Shown: piece by piece, positions 3,001 through 40,299 of the stretch | Numbering within the stretch: the stretch's first letter is position 1 | How the letters are laid out: each line of letters begins with the position of its first letter | Assembly (NCBI GenBank): GCA_043802525.1 | Contig: JAZDKY010000134.1 | Location: 1-40,299, forward strand | DNA from: a bacterium | GTDB taxonomy: Bacteria > Verrucomicrobiota > Kiritimatiellia > CAIVKH01 | Direction: 5' to 3' | DNA: 40,299 bases | Notes under the pieces: generated by a model | What the model saw: the letters and a program-made list of their open reading frames with translations, nothing else | What the model was told of the DNA's origin: nothing | Database searches by the model: none | Program-made: the position numbers and the translations under genes

Positions 3001-3369
3001 CTGCCGGACTGGTGGGAGATCCAGGCGGGCCTTAGTCCGTCGGTTTCCAACTCGCCCGGATCGAATGTGGACGGCGATTGGATGACGGATATGGAGGAAT
3101 ACATTGCCGACACGCAGCCGACGAACGGACTTTCCTTCTTCCCTACCATCGTGCTCACCGATGCTCCGACAGGCGCCATGTCGCTTGTGGTGTATCCGAC
3201 TTCGGCCGGGCGCGTGTATGGGGTTCGCTGGACAACCAACCTGATGCTCGACCCGCAGGTGTGGACGCTGTATCCGCCGGAAAAGACCGGGACCGGATCG
3301 GCTGTCACGTTCACGGTGACCAACGACGCGCCGGGCCGGACGTATCGTACAGGCGTGCGTTTGCCTTGA
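1..3369 (+). CDS. Large secreted repeat protein, 5'-partial. The reading frame is open back to the window edge. It has MAM/choice-of-anchor-like beta-sandwich modules, two near-identical roughly 375-aa repeat units ending in Calx-beta-like motifs (TLTIVDDDG / TLTILDDEG), and a C-terminal DSDNDGLPDWWE (thrombospondin-type-3-like) module plus a roughly 90-aa tail domain.
   Basis: ORF 145..3369 has no stop in frame back to nt 1. The Calx-beta-like signature (NDALAEGNETVNL..ATLTIVDDDG) occurs twice. There is an internal nucleotide tandem duplication. The C-terminal module is shared with the next gene. Confidence 0.7.
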   Translation: MRAIPPPPEVIHSFPLDADPGWTTQGQWAFGVPQGLGGDPSSGHTGAHVYGYNLAGAYANGIPEYFLTTPALDCSGYENVTLSFRRWLGVESASYDHARVYASTNGTTWVTLWNHVSGSFQDTSWQAVSYDLSAIADDSPTVYLRWGMGSTDGSVTYSGWNIDDIELVGNLTDSLRVSPADDLRSTGYLGGPFNPSNNVYTLTNRGSTNLTWTAVCASNWISITPDSGTLSAGVTTDVTVAINANANGLGVGAYNATVAFCNGVSGMVRTRTVALTVQGDIAFDSACYTNGEAGGPALITVRRVGNTNRIVTVDFATSNGTATAGNDYVATSGTLTFAVGDTVKSFDVQVLNDALAEGNETVNLALSNPTGGGALGDPLAATLTIVDDDGFLDDFDLNIDLPQWSAFGGTVGTTVIATNHGGFVSSPNSLWFSDAGSRFAATRSLDTSDGGPMSFWLRFGYGSSPWETADLPGEGVVVESSTNGGTSWLEIGRYDTTNFYSWTYVSMAIPVAAQGPVVRFRWRQLSHSGTSFDHWALDNVMISTVPPDALTVTPTDGLSASGYSGGPFSPSNKVYTLTNTDSTNLTWTAVCASNWISVTPDSGTLSAGVTTDVTVAINANANGLGVGDYNATVAFSNDVSGVVQTRAVSVTVQGEIAFDSATYAVSETGGTAMITVRRDGNTSRAVTVDFATSNGTSMAGSDYVATNGTLTFAVGDTVKSFGVQVLNDALAEGNETVNLVLSNPTGGGTLGNPAAATLTILDDEGIDISLPRNLYDGSNYLWDIQGNGKINNGTIDAYDGGHVLLNFPSFTNGVLVSARQVMMGPSAYGTVRVTRKIYVPADRGFCRFLEVMENVGSEVVTNRVRLDTNLGSDSGTLMDSTSSGDTSFGTNDDWIVTDDADGSGDPTVAHVIANAFGQQRASAVTYSTGVLGYEYSVVLAPGETKIVMHFGAQHLNRAIARSNAASLATLEAGALQLMSPTEIAQVVNFGIPTSDSDNDGLPDWWEIQAGLSPSVSNSPGSNVDGDWMTDMEEYIADTQPTNGLSFFPTIVLTDAPTGAMSLVVYPTSAGRVYGVRWTTNLMLDPQVWTLYPPEKTGTGSAVTFTVTNDAPGRTYRTGVRLP
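568..1170 (+). repeat. Intragenic tandem duplication, unit A. It is near-identical at nucleotide level to 1693..2295 (offset 1125 nt).
   Basis: Direct comparison of ggcggtcc...ctgacgatt(g/c)tggatgacga at both positions shows only scattered substitutions. Confidence 0.85.
1693..2295 (+). repeat. Intragenic tandem duplication, unit B (copy of 568..1170).
   Basis: Same comparison as for unit A. Confidence 0.85.
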
Positions 3370-3563
3370 GCCGCCGTACACGCCTCGACGTGGCAAAGGA
3401 CAAGCGGCGCGCCAAGTCCGGCTTCGCCAACTCTTCGGTGGACAACCCGGTGGTATGTCCCTGAACTGACTATGCCTATGAGCGCCCTGCCAACGATTTC
3501 ATGCCACCTCAGTTTGCGATCTGGAATAAATCGACATGCCGGAGCGACTATTGAACCTTACAG

Positions 3564-3659
3564 AATATTGTGACAAGCGCCCGGTCAGGGGACCGGGCCT
3601 ACAACCGCTGTAGGCCGCGTGCCCCCACGCGGCGTCTGATGCTGAAGGGTCACAATATT
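3564..3659 (+). promoter_or_regulatory. Structured 5' leader of the beta-helix protein gene. An 11-bp perfect inverted repeat (aatattgtgac / gtcacaatatt) encloses two GC hairpins (ccggtc-aggg-gaccgg; cgcgtg-ccc-cacgcg).
   Basis: Inverted repeat at 3564-3574 and 3649-3659. The internal palindromes were read directly from the sequence. Confidence 0.3.
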
Positions 3660-3743
3660 TCGCGAGAGTCAATAATACTTGGGAACGGGGGAATCAGCGC
3701 GACACCATCCAGCAGGGGTCTGCGTCAGAGGAGCCATTTGATC

Positions 3744-6700
3744 ATGAACAGGGCCTTGTGCTTGGTGGTTGTGTTTCTGGGCGTTACGGCTGCGCAGGCG
3801 CAGCCGTCAAACCAAGTGTTCTACATGTCGCCCACCGGCAGCGACGCCAATAACGGGCTGAGCGAGGCGGCGCCTTTCAAGACGTTCCTCAAGGCTTTCA
3901 GTACCATGCAGGGCGGCGATGAGCTGGTTCTTCGGGACGGCACGTACTCGGAGGCGGCCGGGACGGGCATCATCCATTGGCAGGGCGCGAATGCCGCGCA
4001 GATCACGTCCGGCGTGGACCTGGCGCGGCAGACGTATGTGCACGCAAAGAATCCGGGCGCGGTCATCCTTGCCGGACAGCTTTTCATCGGCCGCAGTTTT
4101 CGCAAGGACCGGTATATCACGATCCGCGGCATCACGTTCGAGGGCGGCGGCATGATCTACAACGGCGACTATGTCACGATCAAGGAATGCGGCTTTCACG
4201 ATGTGTCCAACGGGGGCGGCAGCGTTTTTGGGATCGGCACCAACGACCATAACGACGGGAACCGCTACAACCTGATCGAGGACTGCTGGATCTGGGGCCG
4301 CAACCGGATCATAGCCTCAAACTACCGCGCGGATCGGAATGTCTGGCGGCGCGTCGTCATCCGCGGCGATGGCTGCAACAGCGCGGATTGCGCGGGCAGT
4401 GGCAATCCCAACGTCGGCGTTACGGTCTACAATTCCAGCGATGTATCGATGCAGAATGTCGTTGTCATCGACCGGATTCTCGACGGCGGCTCGCCGTACG
4501 GCAGCTTCGCCACGGCGCAACATCAGGACTGGGGGGATGGCGCCGGAGAATGGCAAGGCCCCAATGAGTGGCTCGGAACGATTTCGCTCAATGGGGAAGA
4601 CGGCGGTTATGTTTTTGAGGCCGACGACGCCAATGATAACACCCTTCACATGGAAAACATCGTCGCCTGGAAGAACGGGGGCGGACTGAACATCGGTACG
4701 GCTTCCTGGTCGACCAACAAGACCCGCAACATCCACGTCAGCAATGCGACGCTCGGCGAAAACGGGGACCATGACGGCTTGCGCGTCGCGCCGGAAGTGC
4801 CGCCGCCGGGCATCGTGCGCAATGTGATCGTGTACAAGGCGTCGCGCGGCGTCAATTCGAGCGTGCAGCCGGGCTACTGCGATGTCGATGGGGCGACGGT
4901 GTCGGATTACAATCAGACCGCCTGCGCGACAGGCTGCAGGACCAGCAACCCAACGGCCGACGGCGCGATCCCGTCCCTGAAATACATCACCCGCATCGAG
5001 GCCGGATCGGCGCTCAAGGGTACGGGTTTCGGCGGCGCGGATTACGGCGCAAACGTCCTGTACCGCTACGGTGTGGACGGATCGCGCTACGGCGACACCA
5101 ACTACAACACGCTGACCGCGTCGCCGCTCTGGCCCTGGCCGTACGAGGATCGGATCAAGGCGCAACTGGCGCAGGATTCGACGCGTGGCTTCTGCGCCAC
5201 GAACACAACGCTGACACGGTACATCTGGGAATACCTGGGCCATCCGATCCCGACCACTATCTACGGCGGCGCTTCGACGGGAACGGTCTTCTACGTGGAC
5301 GACGATGCGCCGGACAACAGCGGCGACGGCCTGACTCCTGCAACGGCCATGCACAACCTTTCGGCGGCGCTGGCGCTTTGCAACACGAACGGCGGCGATA
5401 CGGTCACCCTGCTGGATGGCGTGTACGACGAGGCGGCGGATCGCATCCAGCACAGCGTCCTGCCGAAGACGCCGACGAACTACACGACGATCAAGGCGTT
5501 GAACCGGTGGGGCGTGGACATGCGGCAGCCGCTGGACTGCAGCGTGGACAATGCGGTTCGGAATTACGTCGAGCTGGACGGCCTGCGTTTCACGAGCCTG
5601 GGCAATCACACGTTTGCCGGCGCGCGGTGGAAGATTCGGAACTGCGCCTTCCACGGAAGGCTCGGCATGGGCAACAACGGCAGCTCGCTGCCCGGATTGG
5701 CCTGCGAATACAACCTCGTTGAAGACTGTCACGTCTGGGGTCCCGGCGCGACGAACTCCATGCGGTACAAGGTGCAGGTGTACAACAGCCGGAACATCAT
5801 CGTGCGATGCGTTGTCGCGCGGCACGACGGCCAGTACTGGTCCGTTGGCGTGCAGAATCCATCGGCGGTCTTCGTGGTGTACAGTTGCCAGAACGTGATG
5901 CTGCAGAACTGCATCGCCATCGACAGCCCGGGTCCGGACTGCGACGAATGGTCCGCGGGCTACTACACCGCGGACCATCGCGGCAACAACCAGTTGCTGT
6001 GGAGCAACGTGGCGTGGCAGGGTTGCATCGCGGCGCAGATCACCGGCACGTACGCGTTCCGGATCGACAACGGCCAGGACGCCGGGGCGACCGACCGTTA
6101 CGACAACTGCGTCGTGATCGGCGGCCAGGGACCGACCGCCTTCGTGGCCTGGAACAACTACTCCGTTTCCTCGCGCCTCGAATACACGCAATGTTCGGTT
6201 GTGAACACGGGCAACGTCCGCTATGCCACCGGCTTCTCGGAGGGCGGCTATGTTTCATCCGCACGGCGTTGCGTCGTACGCGGTGTGAGCGGTTCGGCGA
6301 TCGGGACGATCAACACGACGCAGTACAACAACGCCTTTGCGTGCGGTTCGAACAACCCTGGCAACAACGGGTTTACCACGGACCCGGAAACCAACGGGCT
6401 GCTGTATCCGATCCGCATCGAACCCGGGAGCTTGCTGCAGACGGCGGGTGGCGGATCCCGGGTCGGCGCGGATCTTTCCAAGGCGTGGGGCGTTTCCGGT
6501 TCGTTCTGGGGCGATCCAGGCTATGACGCGCCGACGACGAATAACCTGTGGCCGTTCCCGAACGAGGCGCAGATCCAGTCGGACTTCCGCGCGTTCGATA
6601 ATACGTCCGACGAGTGGCGTGGGTTCTGCGCGCCGGGGATGACCTTGACACGCTACCTCTGGGAGTACCTGGGCCGGCCGGCCGACTCGGACGACGACCG

Positions 6701-7201: not shown

Positions 7202-8008
7202 GTGAAGCGCATCATCACTTTGGCCACGTGTCTCCTCGCCATCGGCTGCTCCGACAAGAGAGTCGACGAACTCCAGAAGAAGCTGGACGAGCAGCAGGCC
7301 CGGCTGCAGCAACTGGAAAAACAGGTCGGCGAAGAAGACGCCAAGCTGAAAGCGGTCGACGCCAAGCTTCTCGAGGCGCAGCGGTACGCACGCCAGATCG
7401 GGACATCGCAAAGGGAATCAATGCGCCTGCAGCGCGGCCACCAGCAGCAAATCGACGGCGTGCGCGATGACCTGGCCGAACTGCAGCAGAAATTTTTCAC
7501 GCCCCTGACACCCCTGCTGACGGCGAATCCGCCCGCCACCGCCGTCACGACAGCCCCCGCCCCGGCCTACACAGCCCCGATCAGTGTGTATTCACAGCCG
7601 GATCCAGCGGTCTCGGATTTCATCCAACCACCGGCCGGCACGAACAACGACCTGTTCCCCGTTTCCGTCAGCGATGTGCGAGGCGTGAAAGTGGTGTCGG
7701 GGTCGTACACAACAACACAGACCGTGCCGACGGATGACACGTACGTGGACGATTTCGGCGAGAAACAGAACCGGACCCGGATCGAAGAAGTCACCATGCC
7801 CGAACACGACTACCGGGTCTCGTACACGGTCCAGAACCTGACCCGCACGCCGAAACTGTTGGCGGTGGGCGCGGGACGGAAGACCAAGCCCGTGACGCTC
7901 CAGCCCGGCGAAACCCTGACCGATGTCGTCGATTCCGCCTTGGGGGCCGACCTGACCGTCCGCATCGGCGGAACGGTCAGGCGCTATCCGGCCGGCTACG
8001 ACGAGTAG
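7202..8008 (+). CDS. Lipoprotein with a coiled-coil region. The putative GTG start gives MKRIITLATCLLAIGCS with a lipobox. An alternative ATG start lies upstream at 7124.
   Basis: Lipobox LLAIGC follows a hydrophobic stretch. A Q/E/K-rich heptad-like segment is present. The ORF frame is 7025..8008. Confidence 0.45.
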   Translation: MKRIITLATCLLAIGCSDKRVDELQKKLDEQQARLQQLEKQVGEEDAKLKAVDAKLLEAQRYARQIGTSQRESMRLQRGHQQQIDGVRDDLAELQQKFFTPLTPLLTANPPATAVTTAPAPAYTAPISVYSQPDPAVSDFIQPPAGTNNDLFPVSVSDVRGVKVVSGSYTTTQTVPTDDTYVDDFGEKQNRTRIEEVTMPEHDYRVSYTVQNLTRTPKLLAVGAGRKTKPVTLQPGETLTDVVDSALGADLTVRIGGTVRRYPAGYDE

Positions 8009-27702: not shown

Positions 27703-30609
27703 ATGGACAAGTCCTTGGGCAGCCGGGATACCACGCCGCCGGATGATCCATCCGGCAGCGATGGCATCAAGAGCGTCGGCGACTGGCAGACGCTGCGGGC
27801 GATGGCCGGGCGGAAGCGGTTCAAGGCCGGGGAGATGATCCTTGGCCGGTACAAGGTCACCGGCGAACTGGGCCAGGGCGGGATGGGTGTCGTCTACCGC
27901 TGCTTCGACGAGGTCGGCGGGATCGACGTGGCGCTCAAGGCGCTGCCGCCCGAACTCTCGCACGATTCTTCGGAAATGGCGGAGGTACGCGAGAACTTCC
28001 AGCTCGTTTCGCGGCTGGTCCACACCAACATCGCCCAGATCCGCACCCTCGATAAGGACCCCGCCACGGGCGACTACTACCTCGTCATGGAGTGCGTGGA
28101 TGGGATCAACCTGCGCGACTACCGGAAGAAGCACGGCGGGAAACTGACGCTCGAACAGGTGATGCGGATCGCCCCGCAGGTGGCCGGGGCGCTCGACTAT
28201 GCGCACGGCCAGAAAATCATCCACAGGGACATCAAGCCCGCCAACGTGATGATCCGTGCCGACGGCACGGTGAAAGTGCTGGACTTCGGACTGGCCGCGC
28301 AGCTTCACACGTCCATGTCGCGGGTCAGCAAGGCCCATTACGGGACCAGCGGCACGGGCCCGTACATGGCGCCGGAGCAGTGGGAGGGCGACTACCAGGA
28401 CGCGGCGACGGATCAGTACGCGTTCGGTGCCTTGGTCTATGAGCTGCTGGCAGGGCGTTGTCCTTTCGAAAGCCACGACTCGGGCGTCCTGCGGCATGCC
28501 GTCCTGCACGGGAAGGCCAAACCGATCGACGGCGTGCCCGCACGGGAAATGGATGCGATCTTGCGCGCGCTGGCGAAGACGCGGGAGGATCGGTTTGCGG
28601 ATTGCGCGGAGTTTGTGGAGGCGCTGGGCGGGGGGAAGATTGAACCACGGAGGACACGGAGTAACGCGGAGGGGAAGAGGAGTGGGGTTCGTGGTTTGCG
28701 GTTGGGGGTTGGGGTGGTTCTGCTCGTGGCCCTTGGCTACGGGTCCCTTGTGTCCCTCAAGTCGCTTTCCGCGCGCCGCGCGGAGGAGCGCACCGCACAG
28801 GACGCCGCGGCGAAGCAGAACGACGCGTCAAAACAGCAGATTGCCCAACTCCAACAGGCCGTCGAGCAGGCACTGACGTCTGGCAATTTGAAGGCCGCGG
28901 GAGAGAGCCTGTCTGACTTGGAGGAACTGGGCGTGCAGATACCGGCCGTGCGTGATCTGAGAGCCCGATACGAAGCAGCCGCGGGCGCACAAGAAGTGAG
29001 GAAGCGGCAGGCAGAAGCGTCGCTGGAATACGAGGCGGCACAGAAACTCGAGCCTGGGCAGGGGTTGGAGAAGAAGCTGAAGGAACTGGAACTGGTCTGG
29101 CGAGAGGCGGAACAGGCGAAGAAGGACGAGGCGTGGGGGCCGGCGCTGACGTCGTACGACCATCTCCTGGGGAAGTGCCGGGAGCTTGGGGAATGGGATG
29201 CGGCGCGCAAAGGCGCGAAGGCGCAGGGCCGGAAGGCGGAAGGCGCAAGACAGTCGGCGTCGGGCAGGAACGCGGAGCGGGATGCCTTGGCGCTATGGAA
29301 TGGCGCGGCCTCGGCGGCCTCGGCCGCAGCGACGGCCTATGAGGCGGGTGATTTTGCGGGCGCTTCCAAGGGTTGGAAGGATGCTGAAGTGAAGTTCCAA
29401 TCTTCGGAGCAGAGGGCTGTCGCGGTGCAGGCATACGGGAAGGCGAAGGCGGACTACGATGCCGCGGCGTCGCGGGCGGACCGGGAACTGCTGGGGCAGT
29501 ACGCCGCAGGCAAGTGGAAGGAAGCCCAGCAGCAGGCCAGGACGGCGGAGCAGTCCGGGGACACGCCGGACGAGGGGCGCCGGGCGTACGAGGCCGCGCT
29601 GGCGGCCTTGGACGCGGCGGTCAAGGAGGCGGAGGAGAAGTCGATCCCGATCCTGAAGGTCACGGCGAAGGCCGACGGAGCAGATGTCAAAGCTACGGTC
29701 AGCGACGGCAAGAGCACGTGGATGACGCCGGTGGAGCTGAAACTGGCGAAGAACCAGTCCTATACGTTTCAAGTAACCTATGCGGGCGGCGGCAAGCGCT
29801 GGAAAGCGGTGCGCGACACCCGAACATCCGATTGGGTGGGCGTGAAGCAGTGGGCGGTGGCGCTGGAGGCGTCGCGAGGGCCCGAGCCGGGCCGGCCGTG
29901 GACGGTGCCGGAGCTGGGGATGGAGTTCGTGCCGGTGGAGGCGGGCAGCTTCCAGATGGGATCGGAAGACGGCCATAACGACGAGAAACCCGTACACGGC
30001 GTGAGGATCACGAAGCCGTTCTGGATGGGGAAATACGAGGTGACGCAGGAGGAGTACCGGAAGATCAGCGGTCAGGCGCCTTCCTACTTCAAGGGCGACC
30101 GGCTGCCTGTTGAGACGGTCAACTGGAACGAAGCCGTTGCGTTCTGCCGCAAACTGACCGAACAGGAGCAGGCGGCGGGGCGGTTGCCGGAAGGGTATGA
30201 ATACCGGTTGCCGACGGAGGCGGAATGGGAGTACGCGGCGCGCGGCGGGACCTTGAGTCGAGGGACGGGGTATGCGGGCGGCGACGATATTGACCGGGTG
30301 GCGTGGTATACGTCGAATAGCGGGAGTACGACGCATGAGGCGGGCACGAAAGCAGCCAATGAGTTGGGCCTCTACGACATGAGCGGGAACGTGTGGGAAT
30401 GGTGCCTGGACGCATATCAGGACAGCTATACGGGCGCTCCGGCGGATGGTTCGGAGCGTACTGGTTCCGGGGCCGTTTCGCGGGTTCTCCGTGGCGGGTC
30501 GTGGCCCGACGATGCGACGTACTGTCGCGTCGCCTACCGCCGCAGGAACGACCCGACGGACTCCTACTACTGCATTGGCTTTCGTGTTGTGTTGGGGGCG
30601 GTCCGTTGA
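27703..30609 (+). CDS. Transmembrane Ser/Thr protein kinase with a C-terminal extracytoplasmic FGE-sulfatase/C-type-lectin-fold domain carrying the DGR variable region. DGR target 1.
   Basis: LGQGGMGVVYRC, HRDIKPANVMI and DFGLAA. Transmembrane segment GVGVVLLVALGYGSLVSL. FGE domain (RLPTEAEWEYAARGG...GNVWEWCLDAY...RVLRGGSW...GFRVVL). VR1 lies at the 3' end. Confidence 0.9.
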   Translation: MDKSLGSRDTTPPDDPSGSDGIKSVGDWQTLRAMAGRKRFKAGEMILGRYKVTGELGQGGMGVVYRCFDEVGGIDVALKALPPELSHDSSEMAEVRENFQLVSRLVHTNIAQIRTLDKDPATGDYYLVMECVDGINLRDYRKKHGGKLTLEQVMRIAPQVAGALDYAHGQKIIHRDIKPANVMIRADGTVKVLDFGLAAQLHTSMSRVSKAHYGTSGTGPYMAPEQWEGDYQDAATDQYAFGALVYELLAGRCPFESHDSGVLRHAVLHGKAKPIDGVPAREMDAILRALAKTREDRFADCAEFVEALGGGKIEPRRTRSNAEGKRSGVRGLRLGVGVVLLVALGYGSLVSLKSLSARRAEERTAQDAAAKQNDASKQQIAQLQQAVEQALTSGNLKAAGESLSDLEELGVQIPAVRDLRARYEAAAGAQEVRKRQAEASLEYEAAQKLEPGQGLEKKLKELELVWREAEQAKKDEAWGPALTSYDHLLGKCRELGEWDAARKGAKAQGRKAEGARQSASGRNAERDALALWNGAASAASAAATAYEAGDFAGASKGWKDAEVKFQSSEQRAVAVQAYGKAKADYDAAASRADRELLGQYAAGKWKEAQQQARTAEQSGDTPDEGRRAYEAALAALDAAVKEAEEKSIPILKVTAKADGADVKATVSDGKSTWMTPVELKLAKNQSYTFQVTYAGGGKRWKAVRDTRTSDWVGVKQWAVALEASRGPEPGRPWTVPELGMEFVPVEAGSFQMGSEDGHNDEKPVHGVRITKPFWMGKYEVTQEEYRKISGQAPSYFKGDRLPVETVNWNEAVAFCRKLTEQEQAAGRLPEGYEYRLPTEAEWEYAARGGTLSRGTGYAGGDDIDRVAWYTSNSGSTTHEAGTKAANELGLYDMSGNVWEWCLDAYQDSYTGAPADGSERTGSGAVSRVLRGGSWPDDATYCRVAYRRRNDPTDSYYCIGFRVVLGAVR
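30470..30609 (+). repeat. DGR variable repeat VR1 (3' end of kinase-FGE gene 1).
   Basis: 140-nt alignment to TR1 shows 12 mismatches, all at TR adenines (examples: ggAAcAac to ggCCcGac; ccAaccgcAAc to ccTaccgcCGc; AAcAAcAAcAtt to TAcTAcTGcAtt). Confidence 0.9.
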
Positions 30610-30664
30610 GGAATGGGTATTGTACTGAGCTTCTGGGCTTCTGTGTTCTGAACTACTGTTTGAA

Positions 30665-30690
30665 AGCGCGCGGAGCGCGCTCGAATTTTT
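30665..30690 (+). terminator. GC hairpin (agcgcgc-gga-gcgcgct) followed by a T5 run, 56 nt downstream of VR1. It is a DGR target-recognition-type hairpin and/or an intrinsic terminator.
   Basis: Read from the sequence. The homologous position after VR2 has ccccgc-gaa-gcgggg. Confidence 0.5.
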
Positions 30691-30737: not shown

Positions 30738-30877
30738 GGGCCGTTTCGCGGGTTCTCCGTGGCGGGTCGTGGAACAACGATGCGACGAACTGTCGCGTCG
30801 CCAACCGCAACAGGAACGACCCGACGAACTCCAACAACAACATTGGCTTTCGTGTTGTGTTGGGGGCGGTCCGTTGA
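30738..30877 (+). repeat. DGR template repeat TR1 (orphan). It is AAC-rich and translates in target frame as [42 protein letters not shown].
   Basis: Identical to VR1 except at 12 adenine positions. It is intergenic. The upstream gggggaccatgaca resembles the avd 3' end (gggggccgggacatgaca) found before TR2. Confidence 0.9.
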
Positions 30878-31045
30878 AGAATCGGACAGCCAGATACCGT
30901 GCGCTTCCCGCGAGAGCGGGTCGCCCGGTCCGTGCAAACCCATTCCAGTTTTGTCCTCCTGATCCCGCCGGCGAGCGGGGCGAAGACGCGGCGCGGGGCT
31001 GGGGCTGGTACCCTGAGGATCTCGAAGGGGAAAGCCCCGGCCCCG
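30878..31045 (+). ncRNA. Conserved structured RNA element 3' of TR1 (DGR spacer-like region). It includes the shared motif ccagatac and the conserved block aagacgcggcgcggggcYggggcYggtaccctgagg..tcgaRggggaaRgccccggc.
   Basis: The same roughly 60-nt block recurs downstream of TR2 (37607..37665). A C/U difference in the 5' strand preserves pairing (G-C versus G.U) with gccccggcccc. Confidence 0.55.
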
Positions 31046-31253
31046 CATGCTCCGCAGCGGGCACGGAATGGCTGCGCAGCACGACGGGCTATGACCGATC
31101 CGCTGGACATCGCCAAGAAGAATATTCCGCGGGCGGGCGACCGCAAGGGGGCATGACAACCCGGCCAGATTCGCGATATGATTGCATCTGAATGGTTCTT
31201 TATATGACGGTGGCGATGTTGATAAGTCTTGCTGGCAAGATGTTCCTTTCCCT

Positions 31254-31870
31254 ATGAAACCGCCCGACAACAGCCTCGGTGGTCAGTCGACAAATCCCGG
31301 CGCGGATCTGCCGGACGGCATCCATTCGATCGGCGACGTCCTGACGCAGCGCCAGCGGAAGCGGTTCAGGGCCGGGGACGTGCTGGCGGGGCGCTACAAG
31401 ATTCTCGGCGAACTCGGGCAGGGTGGGATGGGGTTGGTGTTCCGTTGCCTTGACGAGGTCGGCGGGATCGAGGTCGCCGTGAAGATGCTTCCTCCGGAAG
31501 TCTCGCGCGACACGGGCGAGATGGAGGAGGTCCGTGAGAATTTCCAACTGGTCGCGAAGCTCGCCCACCCGAACATCGCCACGGTCAGGACCTTGGAACG
31601 GGATCCTGCCACGGGCGAATACCTCCTCGTCATGGACAGCGCCGAGGGCGCCAGCCTGCGGAAGTGGCGAAAAGAAGGCGCAGGGGGCCGTCGCACGCTC
31701 GAAGAGATTCTGCCCGTCCTTGAACACGTGGCGTCGGCGCTGGATTACGCGCACGGGCGCAAGGTCGTCCACCGGGATATCAAGCCCTCCAATATCTCAT
31801 GTGGCGCGGGGCACGTGGTTGGAGGTTAGGGCTTGGTGTGGCCGTGATCCTTGCGCTGGGCTGGTGGGGA
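31254..31870 (+). pseudogene. Truncated paralogue of the kinase-FGE gene. It keeps the kinase N-terminal half (near-identical to 33066..33610) and is then internally deleted to a fragment of the transmembrane region.
   Basis: MKPPDNSLGGQSTNPGADLPDGIHSIGDV...HRDIKPSNI, then SCGAGHVVGG*. The downstream ggcttggtgtggccgtgatccttgcgctgggctggtgggg matches the transmembrane-coding segment at about 34061. Confidence 0.75.
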
Positions 31871-31953
31871 AACGTATAAGCACCTCAGCTTCTGTGGTTC
31901 TTTGCCGTTTTCCTCCAACACGACAACCTGATGATTTCCCCTTTAAGCGCGCG

Positions 31954-32211
31954 TCATCGGTACACCTCGCGTCGGTTGCCGATCTTCAAGACCAGCACGA
32001 TCAATTGTCTGTCCCGAACGGTGTAGATGATGCGCCAGTCGCCAACGCGGACACGATACTGGTCATCTTGCCCGCCCAGTTTTTCCACGCCGGGCGGGCG
32101 CGGGTTATCGGCAAGGCTTTCCAGCCTTCGGAGAATCCGGGAATGAACGTCCGGCTGAAGCAGGTCCAACTGCTTGCGGGCCGGTCGCGTGATCGTGACA
32201 GTGTACTTCAA
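31954..32211 (-). CDS. Type II toxin, RelE/ParE family.
   Basis: ...NPRPPGVEKLGG..QYRVRVGDWRIIYTVRDRQLIVLVLKIGNRREVYR is the classic RelE/ParE C-terminus. 4-bp overlap with the upstream antitoxin. The start is probably TTG. Confidence 0.75.
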   Translation of the reverse strand: MKYTVTITRPARKQLDLLQPDVHSRILRRLESLADNPRPPGVEKLGGQDDQYRVRVGDWRIIYTVRDRQLIVLVLKIGNRREVYR

Positions 32212-32474
32212 GCACGGGCCTTGCGAGTGCGCTTATAATCCTCAAGGGTCATCGCGCTTTTTGGATTCCGCTCGTAGTCGCGCAGGGCCTTCAAGGCGTC
32301 GCGGGCATCTGTTGCGTCCTCGAATCGGCGCAGTAGCTCCAAGTCTTTGGCGGAAACCAGCGCCGCGACCGGCGTCCCACGTCGTTCCACTACAATGCGT
32401 TCGCCGCCGTAGGACACTTTATTGATGGCGTCGGCGAAATGGATACGCGCTTCGGCTATGCTTAATATAGTCAT
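32208..32474 (-). CDS. Type II antitoxin, Phd/YefM family.
   Basis: MTILSIAEARIHFADAINKVSYGGERIVVERRGTPVAALVSAKDLELL fits the Phd/YefM fold signature. It is the only opposite-strand gene pair in a long +strand run. Confidence 0.75.
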   Translation of the reverse strand: MTILSIAEARIHFADAINKVSYGGERIVVERRGTPVAALVSAKDLELLRRFEDATDARDALKALRDYERNPKSAMTLEDYKRTRKARA

Positions 32475-33065: not shown

Positions 33066-35864
33066 ATGACACCGCCCGATAACAGCCTCGGTGGTCAGTC
33101 GACGAATCCCGGCGCGGACCTGCCGGACGGCATCCACTCCATCGGCGACGTCCTGACGCAGCGCCAGCGCAAGCGGTTCAGGGCCGGGGACGTGCTGGCG
33201 GGGCGCTACAAGATTCTCGGCGAACTCGGACAGGGCGGGATGGGGTTGGTGTTCCGCTGCCTTGACGAGGTCGGCGGGATCGAGGTCGCCGTGAAGATGC
33301 TTCCTCCGGAAGTCTCGCGAGACACGGGCGAGATGGAGGAGGTCCGTGAGAATTTCCAACTGGTCGCGAAGCTCGCCCACCCGAGCATCGCCACGGTCAG
33401 GACCTTGGAACGGGACCCTGCCACGGGCGAATACCTCCTCGTCATGGACAGCGCCGAGGGCGTCAGCCTGCGGAAGTGGCGAAAAGAAGGCGCAGGGGGC
33501 CGTCGCACGCTCGCAGAGATTCTGCCCGTCCTTGAACATGTGGCGTCGGCGCTGGATTACGCGCACGGGCGCAAAGTCGTCCACCGTGACATCAAGCCCT
33601 CCAATATCATGGTGTCGCCCGACGGCACGGTCAACGTGTTGGACTTCGGCTTGGCGGCGCAGATCCACACATCGTTTTCCCGCGTCTCGCAAACGAAATA
33701 TGGGACGAGCGGGACGGGCCCGTACATGGCGCCGGAACAGTGGCGCGGGGAATACCAGGACGCGAAGACCGATCAGTATGCGCTGGGGGTGATGACGTAC
33801 GAATTGCTGGCGGGGCGGCTGCCGTTCGAGAGTCATGATGCGTCGGTCTTGAAACAGGCTGTGTTGGACCATGAGCCGACGCCCATCGCGGGGTTGGACC
33901 CTGCTGCGATGGCGGTGCTCCGCCGCGCGTTGGCGAAGAAGCGTGAAGAAAGGTTTGCAAGCTGTGCGGAGTTTGTGGAGGCGCTGGGGGGTGGGAAGAT
34001 TTCACCGCAGAGGACGCCGAGGAACGCAGAGGGAAGGAGGAGTAGATTCGGGGGTTTGTGGTTGGGGGTTGGTGTGGCCGTGATCCTCGTCCTGGGCTGG
34101 TGGGGATGGATGGTATGGCGCCAGGGAAGTGCGCCTGAGGAACAGTCTGCGCGGGTGTCTGCGCAGACGAAGCCGAATACGGCCGCTGAACAGCCAGATG
34201 GGCAAGCGAGCCAAGCGCAGCCGATAACCCTCGAAGATCTGGATAAGTTAGACTTCAGCCCGATAGTCACCCTACCGACATCAGTACGCAATGGCGCCGC
34301 GTACATTGCAACCGACCCGGCGGGGGCGGCGGTTGCGATAGGAGCGGCAGGGAAGACTGCGCCGGCTGAGTTCCTCAATCTTCCTGCGGGCGTGTGTACG
34401 GCGCGGGTATCGCTTTCGGGCTACTACGACACGAGTGTCCTACTCCTCGTCACCGGGGACCGGTTCACCAAAACGAACGTCGTCCTGCGCCGCCACAGCG
34501 GGAAAGTCCGGCTGTCCAGTACGCCAACCGAGGCGGAAATATGGCGGGACGGGCAGAGGCTGGGCATGACGCCCGAGATTCTCGGACCCTTCCCAGCCGA
34601 GTCGATCGTGTTCGAGTTGAAGAAGCCGGGTTACCGCCCGGCGACCGTCACCGTGGAGGTCCGGAAGGACGAAGCCACCGACCGTACCGCGAGCCTCGAA
34701 AAGGCGTCCGGCTGGCTTCGCGTTGTGGCGCAAGGAAGGCCTGCTGGTGAAGCGGGCGAATTGGAGATCGACGGCCGGAGCGTGGGCGTCGTCAAGCTCC
34801 CCTACGTCGCGGGCCCGTTCGATCCCGCGAAGGTCAAGGTGCGCTTCGTCGGCGCAGGCGGCGCGTCGGCGGAGGCCGCAGCCTCCGTGGAGGACACCAG
34901 AACCAACGTGGTCACGCTGGTCTTCGAGGCGCAGCCGAGGGATGGCGAAGACTGGACCGTCAAGAACTTGGGCATGCTGGTGAAGTGGATCCCGGCGGGC
35001 ACGTTCATGATGGGCAGCACGCCGGAGGAACGGGCGTGGGCCGCCGGGTCGGAGGGCAAGGGGCAGAAGGAATGGTTTGCCGGTGAAGGCGATCAGCCGC
35101 GGAGCACGAAGGTGGATCCGGGTTTCTGGTTGGGACAGACCGAGGTCACGCGGGGTCAGTGGAAACAGTTCATGGCAGACAATCCCTCGTTTCGAACCGA
35201 TGCGGAGAAAAGCGGCCAGGCATGGTGCCTTGACATCAAAGGCGACAAGCAATGGAAGCTCATGAAGGGTAAGAGCTGGCGGGATCCGAACTTCGAGCAG
35301 GACGATACGCACCCGGTTGTGTGCATATCGTGGAACGACGCGACCGCCTTCTGCGCTTGGCTGACTCGTAAGGAACGGGACGGCGGCCGCCTCCCGGAGA
35401 GCCTGGTTTACCGCCTTCCATCAGAGGCGGAATGGGAGTATGCCTGCAGAGCGCAAAAGGAGCAGACGCGGTTCTGGTGGGGAGACGCTGTGATGGACGG
35501 AGAAGGGCGAGTGAACGTGGGGGGGACGGAAAAGATGCCGAATGGAACCACTTGGAGCGTGAGCTTCTCGTTTGACGATGGCTGGCCCTACACGGCCCCG
35601 GTGGACAGCTATGGGACCAGAGGGCGCAATGGCTTTGGTTTGGCGGATATGCTGGGCAACGTCTGGGAGTGGTGCCTCGACGGCTGGTCGGAGCAGGGCG
35701 CGCAGGTCCAGGTATACAAGGCCGATGCTTCGCGGCGCGTTGTGCGGGGCGGGTCGTTCAACTTTCAACCCGGTGGCGTCCGTTGCGCGTATCGCGCCAG
35801 GACCGATCCTTCGCTTCCGGACGGCGGCGATGGCTTTCGGGTTGGTCTGGGTGTTTCCCGCTGA
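33066..35864 (+). CDS. Transmembrane Ser/Thr protein kinase with a C-terminal extracytoplasmic FGE-sulfatase/C-type-lectin-fold domain carrying VR2. DGR target 2.
   Basis: LGQGGMGLVFRC, HRDIKPSNIMV and DFGLAA. Transmembrane segment LWLGVGVAVILVLGWWGW. FGE domain (RLPSEAEWEYACRA...GNVWEWCLDGW...RVVRGGSF...GFRVGL). Confidence 0.9.
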   Translation: MTPPDNSLGGQSTNPGADLPDGIHSIGDVLTQRQRKRFRAGDVLAGRYKILGELGQGGMGLVFRCLDEVGGIEVAVKMLPPEVSRDTGEMEEVRENFQLVAKLAHPSIATVRTLERDPATGEYLLVMDSAEGVSLRKWRKEGAGGRRTLAEILPVLEHVASALDYAHGRKVVHRDIKPSNIMVSPDGTVNVLDFGLAAQIHTSFSRVSQTKYGTSGTGPYMAPEQWRGEYQDAKTDQYALGVMTYELLAGRLPFESHDASVLKQAVLDHEPTPIAGLDPAAMAVLRRALAKKREERFASCAEFVEALGGGKISPQRTPRNAEGRRSRFGGLWLGVGVAVILVLGWWGWMVWRQGSAPEEQSARVSAQTKPNTAAEQPDGQASQAQPITLEDLDKLDFSPIVTLPTSVRNGAAYIATDPAGAAVAIGAAGKTAPAEFLNLPAGVCTARVSLSGYYDTSVLLLVTGDRFTKTNVVLRRHSGKVRLSSTPTEAEIWRDGQRLGMTPEILGPFPAESIVFELKKPGYRPATVTVEVRKDEATDRTASLEKASGWLRVVAQGRPAGEAGELEIDGRSVGVVKLPYVAGPFDPAKVKVRFVGAGGASAEAAASVEDTRTNVVTLVFEAQPRDGEDWTVKNLGMLVKWIPAGTFMMGSTPEERAWAAGSEGKGQKEWFAGEGDQPRSTKVDPGFWLGQTEVTRGQWKQFMADNPSFRTDAEKSGQAWCLDIKGDKQWKLMKGKSWRDPNFEQDDTHPVVCISWNDATAFCAWLTRKERDGGRLPESLVYRLPSEAEWEYACRAQKEQTRFWWGDAVMDGEGRVNVGGTEKMPNGTTWSVSFSFDDGWPYTAPVDSYGTRGRNGFGLADMLGNVWEWCLDGWSEQGAQVQVYKADASRRVVRGGSFNFQPGGVRCAYRARTDPSLPDGGDGFRVGLGVSR

Positions 35865-35867
35865 GGC
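35729..35867 (+). repeat. DGR variable repeat VR2.
   Basis: 139-nt alignment to TR2 shows 16 mismatches, all at TR adenines (examples: cAAtcaa to cTTtcaa; tAAcgtAcgAtg to tGGcgtCcgTtg; AtcgAAtccgA to TtcgCTtccgG; cAgcAAcAAtgg to cGgcGGcGAtgg). Confidence 0.9.
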
Positions 35868-35926
35868 ATGGTAGTTGTTCTGTGTCCTGAGCTTCTGGGT
35901 TCTGGTTTCTGAGGTTCTGAAAACTA

Positions 35927-35941
35927 ACCCCGCGAAGCGGG
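35927..35941 (+). promoter_or_regulatory. GC hairpin with a GAA triloop (ccccgc-gaa-gcgggg), 60 nt downstream of VR2 and just upstream of the RT start. DGR target-recognition-type hairpin.
   Basis: Read from the sequence. The segment between VR and hairpin (ctgagcttctggg.ttctg.gtt.ctga) is conserved with the VR1-downstream region. Confidence 0.5.
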
Positions 35942-35952
35942 GCCGAAAATGT

Positions 35953-37014
35953 ATGGCCGTAACCTTCAAGCATCTGTACGCGCAGGTCTGGGACTTCGAA
36001 AACCTGTGGCTGGCTTATCAGAAGGCCCGCCGGGGCAAACGGTATGACGAGCCTGTGGCGAGGTTCGACAGCAACGCGGAGGAGAATATTCTCCAGCTAC
36101 AGTCGGAACTGCGCGACCGCTGCTGGACACCCGGGCCGTACCGCCACTTCTACGTTTGGGAGCCCAAGAAGCGAAGGATATCCGCCGCGCCGTTCCGCGA
36201 CCGCGTTGTGCACCACGCCCTAGTGAACGTGCTGGAGCCGATCTATGAAGCGCGATTCAGCGGTTCTTCGTATGCCTGCAGGAAAGGGAAGGGCACACTG
36301 GCGGCGATGCTCAAGGCGCATTGGGGCGTCCGCAACTGCGCGTGGTTCCTCAAGGGCGATATCGTGAAATTCTTTCCCTCTGTGGATCACGAGGTGCTCC
36401 TGAGCGTTCTCCAGAGGAAGATCGCGGACGTCGATGTCCTGGCGATGATTCGCGTCATCCTCGATTCCGGGCGGGGTGTCTTTGATGATGAGCGGCCGCC
36501 GATGTGGTTCGCGGGCGACGACCTGCTTGCGCCCGCGCTCCGGCCCAAAGGGCTTCCGATCGGCAACCTGACCAGCCAGTTCTTTGCAAACGTCCTTCTC
36601 AACGAACTCGACCAGTTTGTGCACACCCGACTTTCGCCGCGCCTCTATGTCCGCTACAGCGACGACTTCGTGCTTTTCGATCACGACCGCGGCAAGGTGG
36701 AGCCCGTGCGCGGTCCGATCGAGGAGTGCCTTGAGTCGCTGCGCCTGAGGATGCATCCGGGCAAGTCCCATCTTCGGCCTTCCCGGCAGGGGCTCCGGTT
36801 CCTGGGTTTCCGGCTTCTTCCGTCGACGCGAAGGGTGGCTCGCGAAAACCTGACGCGTTTCCGGCGACGTATGCGGACGTGCGGGCATCTGCGGAGGGGA
36901 AATCGAATAACCGTCGCGCGCGTGGGCGCATCCGTGCGTGGCTGGTTGAGTCACGTGGACCATGCGAATGCGTCCGCCGTCACAAGGAGGTTGTTGTCCG
37001 ATGTCCGGTTCTGA
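35953..37014 (+). CDS. Diversity-generating retroelement reverse transcriptase.
   Basis: The hallmark DGR RT motif IGNLTSQFFANVLLNELD is present, as is RYSDDFVLF (catalytic YxDD) and the N-terminal FENLWLAYQKARRGKRYD. The gene sits between a VR and a TR. The in-frame upstream extension to 35875 is unlikely. Confidence 0.9.
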   Translation: MAVTFKHLYAQVWDFENLWLAYQKARRGKRYDEPVARFDSNAEENILQLQSELRDRCWTPGPYRHFYVWEPKKRRISAAPFRDRVVHHALVNVLEPIYEARFSGSSYACRKGKGTLAAMLKAHWGVRNCAWFLKGDIVKFFPSVDHEVLLSVLQRKIADVDVLAMIRVILDSGRGVFDDERPPMWFAGDDLLAPALRPKGLPIGNLTSQFFANVLLNELDQFVHTRLSPRLYVRYSDDFVLFDHDRGKVEPVRGPIEECLESLRLRMHPGKSHLRPSRQGLRFLGFRLLPSTRRVARENLTRFRRRMRTCGHLRRGNRITVARVGASVRGWLSHVDHANASAVTRRLLSDVRF

Positions 37015-37354
37015 TCGCGCGGAATCCCCGCTATTCGTCAAGACAAGGGACTTCATGGGCTGGCTGTTCCAGCACACGGCCAAGTTCCCCAAGGTCTACC
37101 GGCATACGCTGACAAACCGATTGGAAGAAAGTATGCTGGATTTTCATCGCTGTCTTGGTGTCGCCGCGTTGACGGGCGATGAGGTAGCCCTCGCACGTGC
37201 GGACGTCGAGCTGTGGCAACTGCGCCAGCTTCTCCGCTTGGCAAACGACATGGGATTCTTCCCCGCTCGCCTGATGGAGTACAGCGCCCCACGGCTCGCA
37301 GAGCTCGGGAGCCTGCTTGGCGGGTGGCGGAGGAAGACGGGGGCCGGGACATGA
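37001..37354 (+). CDS. avd: Avd-like accessory variability determinant (small basic four-helix-bundle protein). It overlaps the RT 3' end.
   Basis: AGGAGG RBS 10 nt upstream. About 117 aa. ...AKFPKVYRHTLTNRLEESMLD...LAELGSLLGGWRRK resembles Bordetella phage Avd / TIGR02436-type proteins. It lies immediately upstream of TR2. Confidence 0.7.
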   Translation: MSGSDRAESPLFVKTRDFMGWLFQHTAKFPKVYRHTLTNRLEESMLDFHRCLGVAALTGDEVALARADVELWQLRQLLRLANDMGFFPARLMEYSAPRLAELGSLLGGWRRKTGAGT

Positions 37355-37361
37355 CAGCGGC

Positions 37362-37500
37362 GTTCGCGGCGCGTTGTGCGGGGCGGGTCGTTCAACAATC
37401 AACCCGGTAACGTACGATGCGCGTATCGCGACAGGAACGATCCATCGAATCCGAACAGCAACAATGGCTTTCGGGTTGGTCTGGGTGTTTCCCGCTGAGG
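37362..37500 (+). repeat. DGR template repeat TR2. It is AAC-rich and translates in target frame as RVVRGGSFNNQPGNVRCAYRDRNDPSNPNSNNGFRVGLGVSR.
   Basis: Identical to VR2 except at 16 adenines. It starts 8 nt after the avd stop. Confidence 0.9.
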
Positions 37501-37665
37501 CGTCGAACTGCCAGATACGGCAAGCCCGCGGCTGCGCCGCGATCCTGCCGTCCGAGCACCTCCATGCCCGTCCCGGCATCCGGATCGCGCCCCTTTGGGC
37601 GCGACAAAGACGCGGCGCGGGGCCGGGGCCGGTACCCTGAGGTTGTCGAGGGGGAAGGCCCCGGC
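37501..37665 (+). ncRNA. Conserved structured RNA element 3' of TR2 (DGR spacer-like region). It is homologous to 30878..31045.
   Basis: Shared ccagatac and the block aagacgcggcgcggggccggggccggtaccctgaggttgtcgagggggaaggccccggc. Stem gccggggcc/ggccccggc. Confidence 0.55.
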
Positions 37666-37718
37666 GTCGCATTCCGAGGCGGGGTTGTGCAGCATGTACG
37701 GCGAGTAAGGAGGTTCTC

Positions 37719-38870
37719 ATGAGTTTTCTCCTCGAAAAGAAACTGGAGCACGAGAGCCTGTGCGAGTCTGACATTCGGGCGGGCCGCGTCGGGAATGCCG
37801 TTTTCCACGCGGCGAAGGCCGCCGAATTCGCGTACGCCCTGGCCGCGCAGACGGCCGGCAACATCGGCCAGCGCTATATTGAGGATGCGGAGGGGTGGTT
37901 GGAGATCGCGGAGAGGCTGCGGACCAGGCCCCCTGTTTCCCGGAAGACGGAGGACGGAGGACGGAAGACGGAGGGAAAGGGGCAGAGGACGAAGGATGAC
38001 GAGCAGGGGCCGGATGATGACTGGCTGGTGACCGAAAAGCCCAATGTCACGTTCGACATGATCGCGGGGATGGCAGAGGCGAAGCAGTCGATCATGGAGA
38101 TGGTGGTGCTGCCGCTCAAATCGCCCGAGAAGGCGAAGGCACTGGGACTGCGGGCCGGCGGCGGCGTGCTGCTATATGGCCCTCCCGGCAATGGCAAGAC
38201 CCTTCTCGGCAAGGCGGTGGCCAGCCAGCTCGACGCGCCGTTCTACTACGCGTCGGGCGCCCAGATACGGTCCAAGTGGCACGGAGAATCCGAGCAGCGG
38301 CTGCGCAAGCTCATCCAGTCCGCGAAGCAGCAATCCGTTGCCGTTCTTTTCCTGGACGAAGTCGACGGACTGCTCCCGAAACGCGGCGGAAATTCCGTCG
38401 TCGATAACCGCTTGGTGACGCAGTTCCTTGCGGAAATCGGCGGGTTCGAGGAATCCGACAATGTGCTCCTGGTCCTTGGGGCGACCAACAAGCCTTGGGA
38501 GATTGACGAAGCCGTTTTCCGGACCGGCCGATTCGACGAAAAGATCTATGTGGGCCTTCCTGACGATCCGGCCCGGCTTGGCATCCTGCACATGCACCTG
38601 GACAAGGTCCCGCTCGGGCCGGACTTCGATTTCGAGAAATGGGCGAAACGGATCGAGGGCTATACGGGAAGCGACATTGTCGGCGTCGTCAACGATGCCA
38701 AGAGATCCGCGCTCAGCAGGAGCATCCGTGAAGAGGGCGATCCGCAACTGACGAATGCCGATCTGGAGGCTGCCTTCAAGACGATACCGTCGTCCGTCAC
38801 ACCGCAACTGCTTCAGCGGTACGAGCAATTCAAGCAGGCACGGTTTGGCCAGCCAAAGGACGTGGCCTGA
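37719..38870 (+). CDS. Vps4-like (meiotic-clade) AAA+ ATPase. It has an N-terminal MIT-like helical domain, a low-complexity linker, an AAA domain and a Vps4-type C-terminal helix.
   Basis: AAGGAGG RBS. Walker A GPPGNGKT, Walker B LFLDEVD. SKWHGESEQRLRKL and LVLGATNKPWEIDEAVFRTGRFDEKIYVGLPD parallel Vps4 SKWLGESEKLVKNL and [30 protein letters not shown]. C-terminal TIPSSVTPQLLQRYEQFKQARFGQ parallels Vps4 [24 protein letters not shown]. Confidence 0.75.
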   Translation: MSFLLEKKLEHESLCESDIRAGRVGNAVFHAAKAAEFAYALAAQTAGNIGQRYIEDAEGWLEIAERLRTRPPVSRKTEDGGRKTEGKGQRTKDDEQGPDDDWLVTEKPNVTFDMIAGMAEAKQSIMEMVVLPLKSPEKAKALGLRAGGGVLLYGPPGNGKTLLGKAVASQLDAPFYYASGAQIRSKWHGESEQRLRKLIQSAKQQSVAVLFLDEVDGLLPKRGGNSVVDNRLVTQFLAEIGGFEESDNVLLVLGATNKPWEIDEAVFRTGRFDEKIYVGLPDDPARLGILHMHLDKVPLGPDFDFEKWAKRIEGYTGSDIVGVVNDAKRSALSRSIREEGDPQLTNADLEAAFKTIPSSVTPQLLQRYEQFKQARFGQPKDVA

Positions 38871-40025: not shown

Positions 40026-40165
40026 CCCTCCCAAGGCGGGCAGGCCCTCCCAAGGCGGGCAGGCCCTCCCAAGGCGGGCAGGCCCTCCCAAGGCGGGCAG
40101 GCCCTCCCAAGGCGGGCAGGCCCTCCCAAGGCGGGCAGGCCCTCCGAAGGCGGGCGGGCCTGGTC
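40026..40165. repeat. Minisatellite: a 19-bp unit (caaggcgggcaggccctcc) in six perfect tandem copies, with a degenerate partial copy on each side.
   Basis: caagg recurs every 19 nt from 40032 to 40127. There are no spacers, so this is not a CRISPR array. Confidence 0.85.
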
Positions 40166-40299
40166 AATGACAATTACAACCGGGCATTGACGACAATTAC
40201 ACTTCCGCATGGGCGGTGGACGATTATGGGCTCCTTTTCCTGTCCCCTGGCCTGTGCAGGAGCCCGGTCCCGCTGAAGGCGGGATGCCCCGCAGGGGCA

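Follow-up and report, generated by a model that had tools for sequence, protein, structure and literature searches.

We analysed a 40,299-nt stretch of DNA from a bacterial metagenome-assembled genome (contig JAZDKY010000134.1; this whole stretch is hereafter the window, GC content ~60%). A diversity-generating retroelement (DGR) spans 27.7 to 38.9 kb of it and comprises two target genes of the kinase-FGE type, two pairs of variable repeat (VR) and template repeat (TR), a reverse transcriptase (RT) and an Avd protein. The VRs of this element and many VRs of its relatives are followed by a module that runs from a VR end resembling the initiation of mutagenic homing (IMH) sequence through a T-rich array with a 7–8-nt repeat to a GC stem with a C-GNA-G triloop and a short A/T tract. 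The module is oriented, with GNA on the sense strand, and stands after VRs, not TRs. Its parts and the surrounding DGR components in the window are as follows.

27703–30609, + strand: target gene 1, with Pfam Pkinase and FGE-sulfatase domains (a Ser/Thr kinase and a C-type-lectin fold)
30470–30622, + strand: VR1, the 3′ end of target gene 1, with an invariant IMH-like 3′ part at ~30573–30622
30625–30658, + strand: array 1, five CTG-centred units (30625, 30633, 30641, 30648 and 30656; spacing 8, 8, 7 and 8 nt), opening with CTGAGCTTCTGGG
30665–30681, + strand: hairpin 1, AGCGCGC-GGA-GCGCGCT, a perfect 7-bp stem (6 GC) with a GGA triloop closed by C:G, containing GCGGAGC at 30670–30676
30684–30690, + strand: the A/T tract AATTTTT after hairpin 1
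30738–30890, + strand: TR1, a donor copy that serves as control, with neither array nor GNA hairpin after it
33066–35864, + strand: target gene 2 (kinase-PEGA-FGE), with Pfam Pkinase and FGE-sulfatase domains
35729–35872, + strand: VR2, the 3′ end of target gene 2, with an IMH-like 3′ part at ~35830–35872
35880–35919, + strand: array 2, six CTG-centred units (35880, 35887, 35895, 35902, 35909 and 35917; spacing 7, 8, 7, 7 and 8 nt), including CTGAGCTTCTGGG at 35887–35899
35928–35942, + strand: hairpin 2, CCCCGC-GAA-GCGGGG, a perfect 6-bp all-GC stem with a GAA triloop closed by C:G, containing GCGAAGC at 35932–35938
35953–37014, + strand: DGR reverse transcriptase (Pfam RVT_1), with a clade of 59–69% identical relatives in which the order target-RT-Avd-TR is also found
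36962–37354, + strand: Avd accessory protein (Pfam bAvd, 5e-13)
37363–37505, + strand: TR2, the donor copy for VR2 and second control, again with neither array nor GNA hairpin after it

VR1 and TR1 were 91% identical, with 13 of their 14 mismatches at TR adenines, while VR2 and TR2 were 88% identical and differed at TR adenines throughout (16/16). The DGR premise is therefore sound, given this adenine-specific mismatch signature. The original prediction for this locus placed hairpins with perfect 6–7-bp GC stems and a 3-nt G-N-A loop after both VRs, and both were found at 30665–30681 and 35928–35942. Of the offsets it gave, +56 was correct when counted from the stop codon, while the second, put at +60, is +64. 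The two hairpins had further been described as equidistant from their VRs, which is true only relative to the start of the 13-mer CTGAGCTTCTGGG (40 and 41 nt); the gaps from the end of VR/TR homology (30622 and ~35872) are 42 and ~55 nt. Similarly, the conserved stretch reported after both VRs does include this exact shared 13-mer, starting at 30625 and 35887, but is one instance of a periodic array that had gone unrecognised: further TTCTG-type units follow CTGAGCTTCTGGG in both flanks, and alignment of the flanks needs indels.

Both elements of the module were rare elsewhere in the window. Chains of at least four CTG spaced 6–9 nt apart occurred only as arrays 1 and 2 when both strands were checked, and the + strand contained three C-GNA-G hairpins with a stem of at least 6 bp, two of which are the VR-flank hairpins. 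Folding of the 91-nt flanks as single-stranded DNA (z = −3.1 for hairpin 1 and −1.7 for hairpin 2) recovered both hairpins in the centroid structure as well as in that of minimum energy. We estimate the chance of finding a C-GNA-G hairpin less than 100 nt from both VRs at the order of 1e-5, from a background of 0.03–0.05 per kb. An Rfam scan of the whole window gave zero family matches. The third + strand hairpin, TGCCCC-GCA-GGGGCA at 40285–40299, abuts the window end with its context out of view, and lies ~125 nt beyond seven tandem copies of the 19-mer CCCTCCCAAGGCGGGCAGG (40026–40160). Two hairpin-1-like sequences at 39757 and 39879 proved on inspection not to be hairpins.

We then compared the VR flanks with those of related DGRs, a check that the original prediction had proposed. 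RT relatives comprised the close metagenomic clade at 59–69% identity, which retains the order target-RT-Avd-TR, and, among the matches listed, many more at 41–50% identity; a genome-collection scan with the RT gave three distant relatives (31–45% identity). TR/VR pairs in the fetched loci were identified by self-BLAST, a pair being accepted when adenines of one copy accounted for at least 70% of the mismatch positions, and the 170 nt after each VR were searched for C-GNA-G hairpins with a stem of at least 5 bp. The close RT clade was fetched one protein at a time and all of its flanks were inspected unselected. Such hairpins followed 31 of 59 VRs, compared to none of 49 TRs, and only one flank carried one in the opposite orientation. 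Their density was 3.2 per kb in VR flanks versus 0.03 (+ strand) and 0.05 (− strand) per kb elsewhere in the same loci, which is ~70–100 times the background. All four middle bases were represented among the triloops (GAA 18, GCA 7, GGA 4, GTA 3), and distances from the BLAST VR end ranged from 30 to 157 nt. The claim that stem sequences differ while the structure is kept also held, with two compensatory double changes between the window stems and 23 different stem sequences over all loci.

Within the close RT clade, the combination of a GC stem and a G-N-A triloop was present in 10 of 11 VR flanks, including both window hairpins. The stems and loops in the related loci (L numbers) were:

L084 and L087: GCGCGC-GAA
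L090: CCGCGCGC-GTA and CGCGCGC-GCA
L093: CCGCGC-GAA, twice
L095: CCGCGC-GCA
L096: GGCGCGC-GGA

We encountered no hairpin-less orthologue that still diversifies. The sole close-clade flank without the triloop, in L098, retains a GC inverted repeat, its loop 12 nt long (CCGCGCG-N12-CGCGCGG), and the triloop-bearing L093 and L094 diversify. These two are one 12.5-kb locus recovered from two samples, with VRs at 4551–4693 and 7679–7821 that showed 19 and 20 differences between samples, all at TR adenines, and 0 differences in the array and hairpin. That the changes are confined to TR adenines, beside identical flanks, indicates at the sequence level natural diversification in a relative that bears the triloop flank. 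The two VRs within L093 are identical to each other, which may be due to gene conversion or an assembly effect.

These comparisons bear on whether the likeness of the two window flanks is simply left over from duplication of the target genes, the hairpins being chance palindromes in GC-rich DNA. The targets are indeed paralogues, with ~73% DNA identity in the kinase part, and the window has ~60% GC. Set against this, the stems differ by compensatory changes with the loop class kept, and the module is found again, with 23 different stems, in dozens of metagenomic and plasmid DGRs that are unrelated. The background is ~70–100-fold lower with 0 hits in TR flanks, and the matches in related loci are not redundant copies, having distinct stems and contigs. 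Duplication or chance is thus contradicted by the comparative data, and we regard it as excluded by the sequences compared, its probability being close to negligible.

The loop composition matched a known motif of DNA physical chemistry. In the d(GCGNAGC) mini-hairpin, only GNA among 64 GCNNNGC triloops is extraordinarily stable, with a melting temperature of 70–76 °C, and its RNA counterpart has lower stability (PMC13037366). Hairpins 1 and 2 contain GCGGAGC and GCGAAGC, with C:G closure and a potential sheared G·A pair, as in the mini-hairpins d(GCGNAGC)/d(GCGNNAGC) of Hirao and co-workers (reviewed in PMC13037366). The related hairpin clade obeys the same ‘only GNA’ rule, and mini-hairpin stability may be what has been selected in these DGR flanks, although the mini-hairpin is a physical-chemistry motif and not a genetic element.

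The array between the IMH and the hairpin was widespread and VR-specific. Successive CTG gaps of 7–8 nt made up 138 of 216 gaps in VR flanks, with no such peak in the background. Chains of at least four CTG were found in 23 of 54 VR flanks, compared to 2 of 54 TR flanks with chains of even three or more; the share of background windows with a chain of at least four was ~1% on the + strand and 0.25% on the − strand. The unit reads Y-T-C-T-G-R, with T (79%) or C (19%) at position −2 and A or G (77%) at position +3. Base-identity autocorrelation, which presupposes no motif, peaked at lags 7 (z = 11.7) and 8 (z = 15.9) over the 60 nt after the VR, with harmonics at lags 15–16, and was flat for TR flanks. 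T content was 36% in VR flanks and 19% in TR flanks. VR flanks without CTG chains mostly had CTTTA, TTTTA or CTTTG units, again spaced 7–8 nt apart.

Plasmid DGRs carried variants of the same arrangement. The Anabaena plasmid element has a T-rich tract and TCTCGC-GTA-GCGAGA, the Halomonas plasmid element three CTA and CCGC-GAA-GCGG, and the Legionella plasmid element a TTA/CTA array with a GCAA sequence, identified by eye, in the adjoining GC-rich segment. Those of Photobacterium, Moritella and Ideonella have 4-nt GATA loops. Array cores were CTG in Ideonella, CTG mixed with TTA in Photobacterium and Moritella, CTA in Halomonas, CTA/TTA in Legionella and TTA in cyanobacteria. We considered whether array type is set simply by the primase class of the host and rejected this: plasmid taxonomy is compatible with it but not discriminating, and L096 argues against it, with CTG-type and TTA-type arrays behind two targets of one genome. 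The two types in L096 suggest that array type is tied to DGR lineage rather than host.

As to complementarity of the array to TR-flanking RNA, inspection by eye only showed no CAG-rich counterpart in the TR1 and TR2 flanks. A reverse search of IMG/VR with four TTCTG units at octamer spacing returned at least 120 stretches, mostly perfect microsatellites along with a single phage array that recurred, TTCTGGTG x4. Of the 121 occurrences of the array that were scored among the matches listed, none adjoined a VR or GNA hairpin. The array motif alone is therefore not diagnostic, and the search says nothing on DGRs. The TTCTGGTG array, with four to five copies, recurs in like sequence context in L101, L106, L108 and dozens of viral contigs, unrelated to any VR, and may represent phage-family iterons. 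In the literature searched, coverage of which leaves out most subscription journals, we came across no account of periodic repeats 3′ of VRs.

Other sequences were observed near related arrays and hairpins. A second hairpin class, a G-run followed by a long G-rich stem (for example CTGGGGGGC-N3-7-GCCCCCCAG), follows the CTG array in nine loci (L026, L030, L034, L039, L058, L072, L080, L081 and L009), and in L009, L058 and L080 it is followed by a small GCA mini-hairpin. L096 also has an orphan kinase-FGE target at 2570–4800 with no TR on the contig, where the second target, with the CTG-type array, is located too; the flank of the orphan carries a T-rich TTA-type array and CCGCCGC-GTA-GCGGCGG, then an open reading frame start that is Avd-like by eye only, without search support, and then 37-nt repeats resembling miniature inverted-repeat transposable elements.

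The hairpins could also be read at the level of RNA. GC stem-loops just past stop codons resemble Rho-independent terminators, and if the two hairpins were terminators of the target genes they would need no role in retrohoming. The GC stem of hairpin 1 has CGAATTTTT after it and was listed as terminator-like in a terminator scan, most related hairpins are followed by (T/C)CG and an A/T-rich tract, and Wu et al. weighed a terminator possibility (PMC5758913). However, hairpin 2 has no T-run and ends 10 nt upstream of the RT start codon, and only 6 of 29 related hairpins had at least five T in an 8-nt window starting 0–2 nt past the stem, the other 23 having no adjacent T-tract. The scan of the window gave 8 sites compared to 11.7 in shuffles, and neither C-GNA-G hairpins nor CTG arrays stand at the ends of the other window genes. 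Terminators also do not need a strict G-N-A loop, C:G closure or the complete lack of G·T pairs seen here (0 of 196 stem pairs), all of which fit the DNA mini-hairpin rule. A constrained loop and VR specificity likewise set these hairpins apart from terminators. We therefore consider termination an unlikely explanation of both hairpins, while hairpin 1, with its T-run, may additionally terminate transcription of target 1.

The module could alternatively be an RNA element in the 3′ untranslated region of the targets, acting on mRNA stability, on Rho loading at the YC-rich array or on translation of the RT, and not a DNA signal. The sense orientation (GNA, not TNC) fits RNA as well as sense single-stranded DNA, the array provides a TC dinucleotide every 7–8 nt, and hairpin 2 adjoins the RT start. 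Yet the module follows VRs irrespective of whether the RT comes next (window VR1, the second target of L090, the first target of L093, and L038) and is tied to VRs, with no copy at the other gene ends of the window. The GNA triloop is exceptional as a DNA structure and much less so as RNA (PMC13037366), the stems contain no G·U-type pairs, and the level of transcription had only a mild effect on editing in BPP-1 (PMC12875486). An RNA element is very improbable in our view. The GNA/C:G loop rule and the lack of G·T pairs suggest instead that it is DNA, on the sense strand, that folds.

The module is thus VR-specific, strand-specific, conserved in structure and present in diversifying elements, which matches a cis element already known from DGR targets. 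Efficient homing of BPP-1 depends on a GC inverted repeat that is located 3′ of the VR and absent after the TR; the stem is free in sequence, the loop (GRNA) is constrained in both sequence and size, and the repeat affects efficiency and not the junction (Guo et al. 2011, PMC3240598). According to Wu et al., the repeat is likewise required for the Legionella DGR to retrohome efficiently (PMC5758913). The window hairpins share with the BPP-1 repeat their place 3′ of the VR/IMH and absence after TRs, a free stem with structure kept, flexible distance, and a sense-strand loop with G first and A last. They differ in having 3-nt loops (GGA, GAA) instead of 4-nt GRNA. The published consensus, as in MyDGR, is a stem of 7–10 bp GC with a 4-nt 5′-GRNA loop on the sense strand, 4–34 bp from the VR 3′ end. 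Hairpin 1 fits this stem rule at 7 bp and hairpin 2, at 6 bp, is one pair short; the MyDGR rule would miss both.

Trinucleotide loops as such are not new for DGRs. VR-associated hairpins of Nanoarchaeota have G-R-A loops (Paul et al. 2015, PMC4372165), as do both window hairpins with GGA and GAA. Those of Nanoarchaeota are archaeal and lie inside the target gene, whereas the window hairpins are intergenic, come from a bacterial genome, have an array upstream and belong to a clade with GAA, GCA, GGA and GTA loops. The hairpin is therefore a triloop, distal form within a known class of DGR hairpin, and the periodic array sets it apart from a routine instance of that class. We conclude that the two stem-loops are probably DGR target-site marks, the version used in this clade of the GC-rich inverted repeat 3′ of VR/IMH that tells the recipient VR from the donor TR. 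The comparative evidence supports the homing hairpin originally proposed, and a requirement of the hairpin for homing would follow by analogy with BPP-1 and the Legionella DGR.

We propose that the d(C-GNA-G) mini-hairpin would snap shut when the sense strand is exposed as single-stranded DNA. The likeliest such state would be the lagging-strand template, because targets oriented co-directionally with replication were edited best in BPP-1: in the reconstituted system, these were edited far better, and the strand complementary to the cDNA is then the lagging-strand template (PMC12875486). Alternatively, the repeat might extrude as a small cruciform. The hairpin could keep the 3′ edge of the target open or marked, similar to the suggestion of the authors of that study that the stem-loop prolongs an open state (PMC12875486), and adenine-mutagenised cDNA would then pair with the IMH/VR and be incorporated. 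As in BPP-1, the hairpin would boost efficiency and leave the exact junction unset, and the TR would escape because it lacks the flank. The periodic array could be part of the hairpin signal, as an unstructured pyrimidine-rich spacer or as a docking or priming site. Group IIC introns offer a parallel, drawn by Guo et al., in targeting terminator stem-loops in single-stranded DNA (PMC3240598), but unlike DGRs they use reverse splicing, without VR/TR homology or adenine mutagenesis.

One insertion touches on strand exposure in a relative. In L087, an IS200/IS605-type element (Y1_Tnp) has inserted at 3930–4605, past the VR-flank hairpin and ahead of the RT start codon, and its tnpA shares the strand of the target. 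This family inserts into single-stranded DNA of the lagging-strand template, and the insertion is a single hint that the sense strand may be the lagging template. Positive GC skew on the + strand of the window would also fit a sense strand that is the lagging template but is confounded by coding-strand bias, and we gave it no weight.

Several observations weigh against the interpretation of the hairpins as target-site marks. C-GNA-G hairpins of at least 5 bp were lacking in 28 of 59 VR flanks and are thus not universal, and Wu et al. reported high-confidence GC inverted repeats in only 34% of DGRs (PMC5758913), a share to which misses by a MyDGR-type rule might contribute. Loop size matters in BPP-1, where the addition of 2 nt abolished activity (PMC3240598), and the window loops have 3 nt. 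The gaps of 42 and ~55 nt between the point where TR homology stops and the window hairpins are outside the published 4–34 nt. Stems of 6–7 bp are short for cruciform extrusion, and hairpin 1 also matches a terminator pattern. In an alignment of 29 hairpins, 5–12 sequences per inner pair were changed on both sides and 0 on one side, but this alignment was chosen for at least five perfect pairs and a C-GNA-G loop, such that the inner five pairs are paired by construction; evidence free of this bias comes only from the enrichment, the comparison with TRs and the count in the unselected close clade. A role of the hairpin in homing of this element or clade is a prediction that draws on the characterised systems.

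Less certain is what the array contributes. We tentatively suggest that the 7–8-nt Y-T-R array (TTCTGR here; CTTTA, TTTTA or CTA elsewhere) acts in cis as a second determinant by which DGR targets are recognised and, together with the GNA mini-hairpin, forms a bipartite single-stranded DNA signal on the lagging-strand template; we hold this for possible, with the odds somewhat on the other side. That efficient homing functionally requires the array is an equally tentative proposition. In BPP-1, unlike the window, the hairpin is inside the 24 bp directly downstream of the VR, which leaves no room for a periodic array. The array could be a docking site for the RT-Avd-RNA particle or a structure-free pyrimidine spacer, and we regard these as equally possible.

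A more specific version assigns the array to priming. CTG, CTA and TTA are DnaG initiation trinucleotides (PMC2978363), and mini-hairpin sequences occur in stable hairpins of single-strand initiation signals (PMC13037366). A primer begun at array cores on the sense strand would run into the VR, and with the cores as DnaG starts pointing to the VR the flank could couple cDNA incorporation to Okazaki-fragment priming. The module resembles single-strand initiation signals and the complementary-strand origin of phage G4 in placing a stable hairpin next to CTG on the strand expected to be single-stranded. The start site of phage G4 is 3′ of its hairpin; the window CTGs may thus differ in geometry, being 5′ of the hairpin on the template, and they are many instead of one. 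Neither DnaG overexpression nor a recruitment mutant in E. coli changed BPP-1 editing (PMC12875486). This lack of effect, and the two array types in the L096 genome, weaken the primase version, which we consider improbable.

The chief unsolved step in mutagenic retrohoming is how the cDNA locates and enters its target, and this also limits the use of DGRs as programmable diversifiers. Our results suggest that, for a large cellular DGR lineage with kinase/FGE targets, the current rule misses the real signal, a C-GNA-G triloop hairpin 30–150 nt away, and that the DNA between VR and hairpin is a strongly periodic, strand-specific array absent from donor TRs. Loop, stem, array core, spacing and orientation are concrete targets for mutation. 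The module would also improve the rule by which orphan or remote DGR targets are called, and would provide a sequence-level handle on the dependence of editing on replication direction.

Additional features of the element were seen in the window. A single RT serves two different TRs, each paired with its own VR, and TR1 is just 57 nt past hairpin 1 and far from the RT. A 74-nt element is located ~90 nt past each TR (30975–31048 and 37599–37672; copies 85% identical) and is a candidate for an RT/Avd-binding spacer RNA. Between TR1 and target 2 is a truncated kinase paralogue (31182–32238), the first 300 nt of which (31254–31553) are 96% identical to the start of target 2 (33066–33365), which indicates a recent partial duplication, judging by this identity. 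One further gene follows the DGR:

37719–38870: AAA ATPase gene

An AAA ATPase gene after the DGR is also present in L093 (10661–12417), with a weak Snf7-like gene upstream of it, and this arrangement is in keeping with the conflict-system neighbourhoods that have been described around cellular ‘clade 5’ DGRs.

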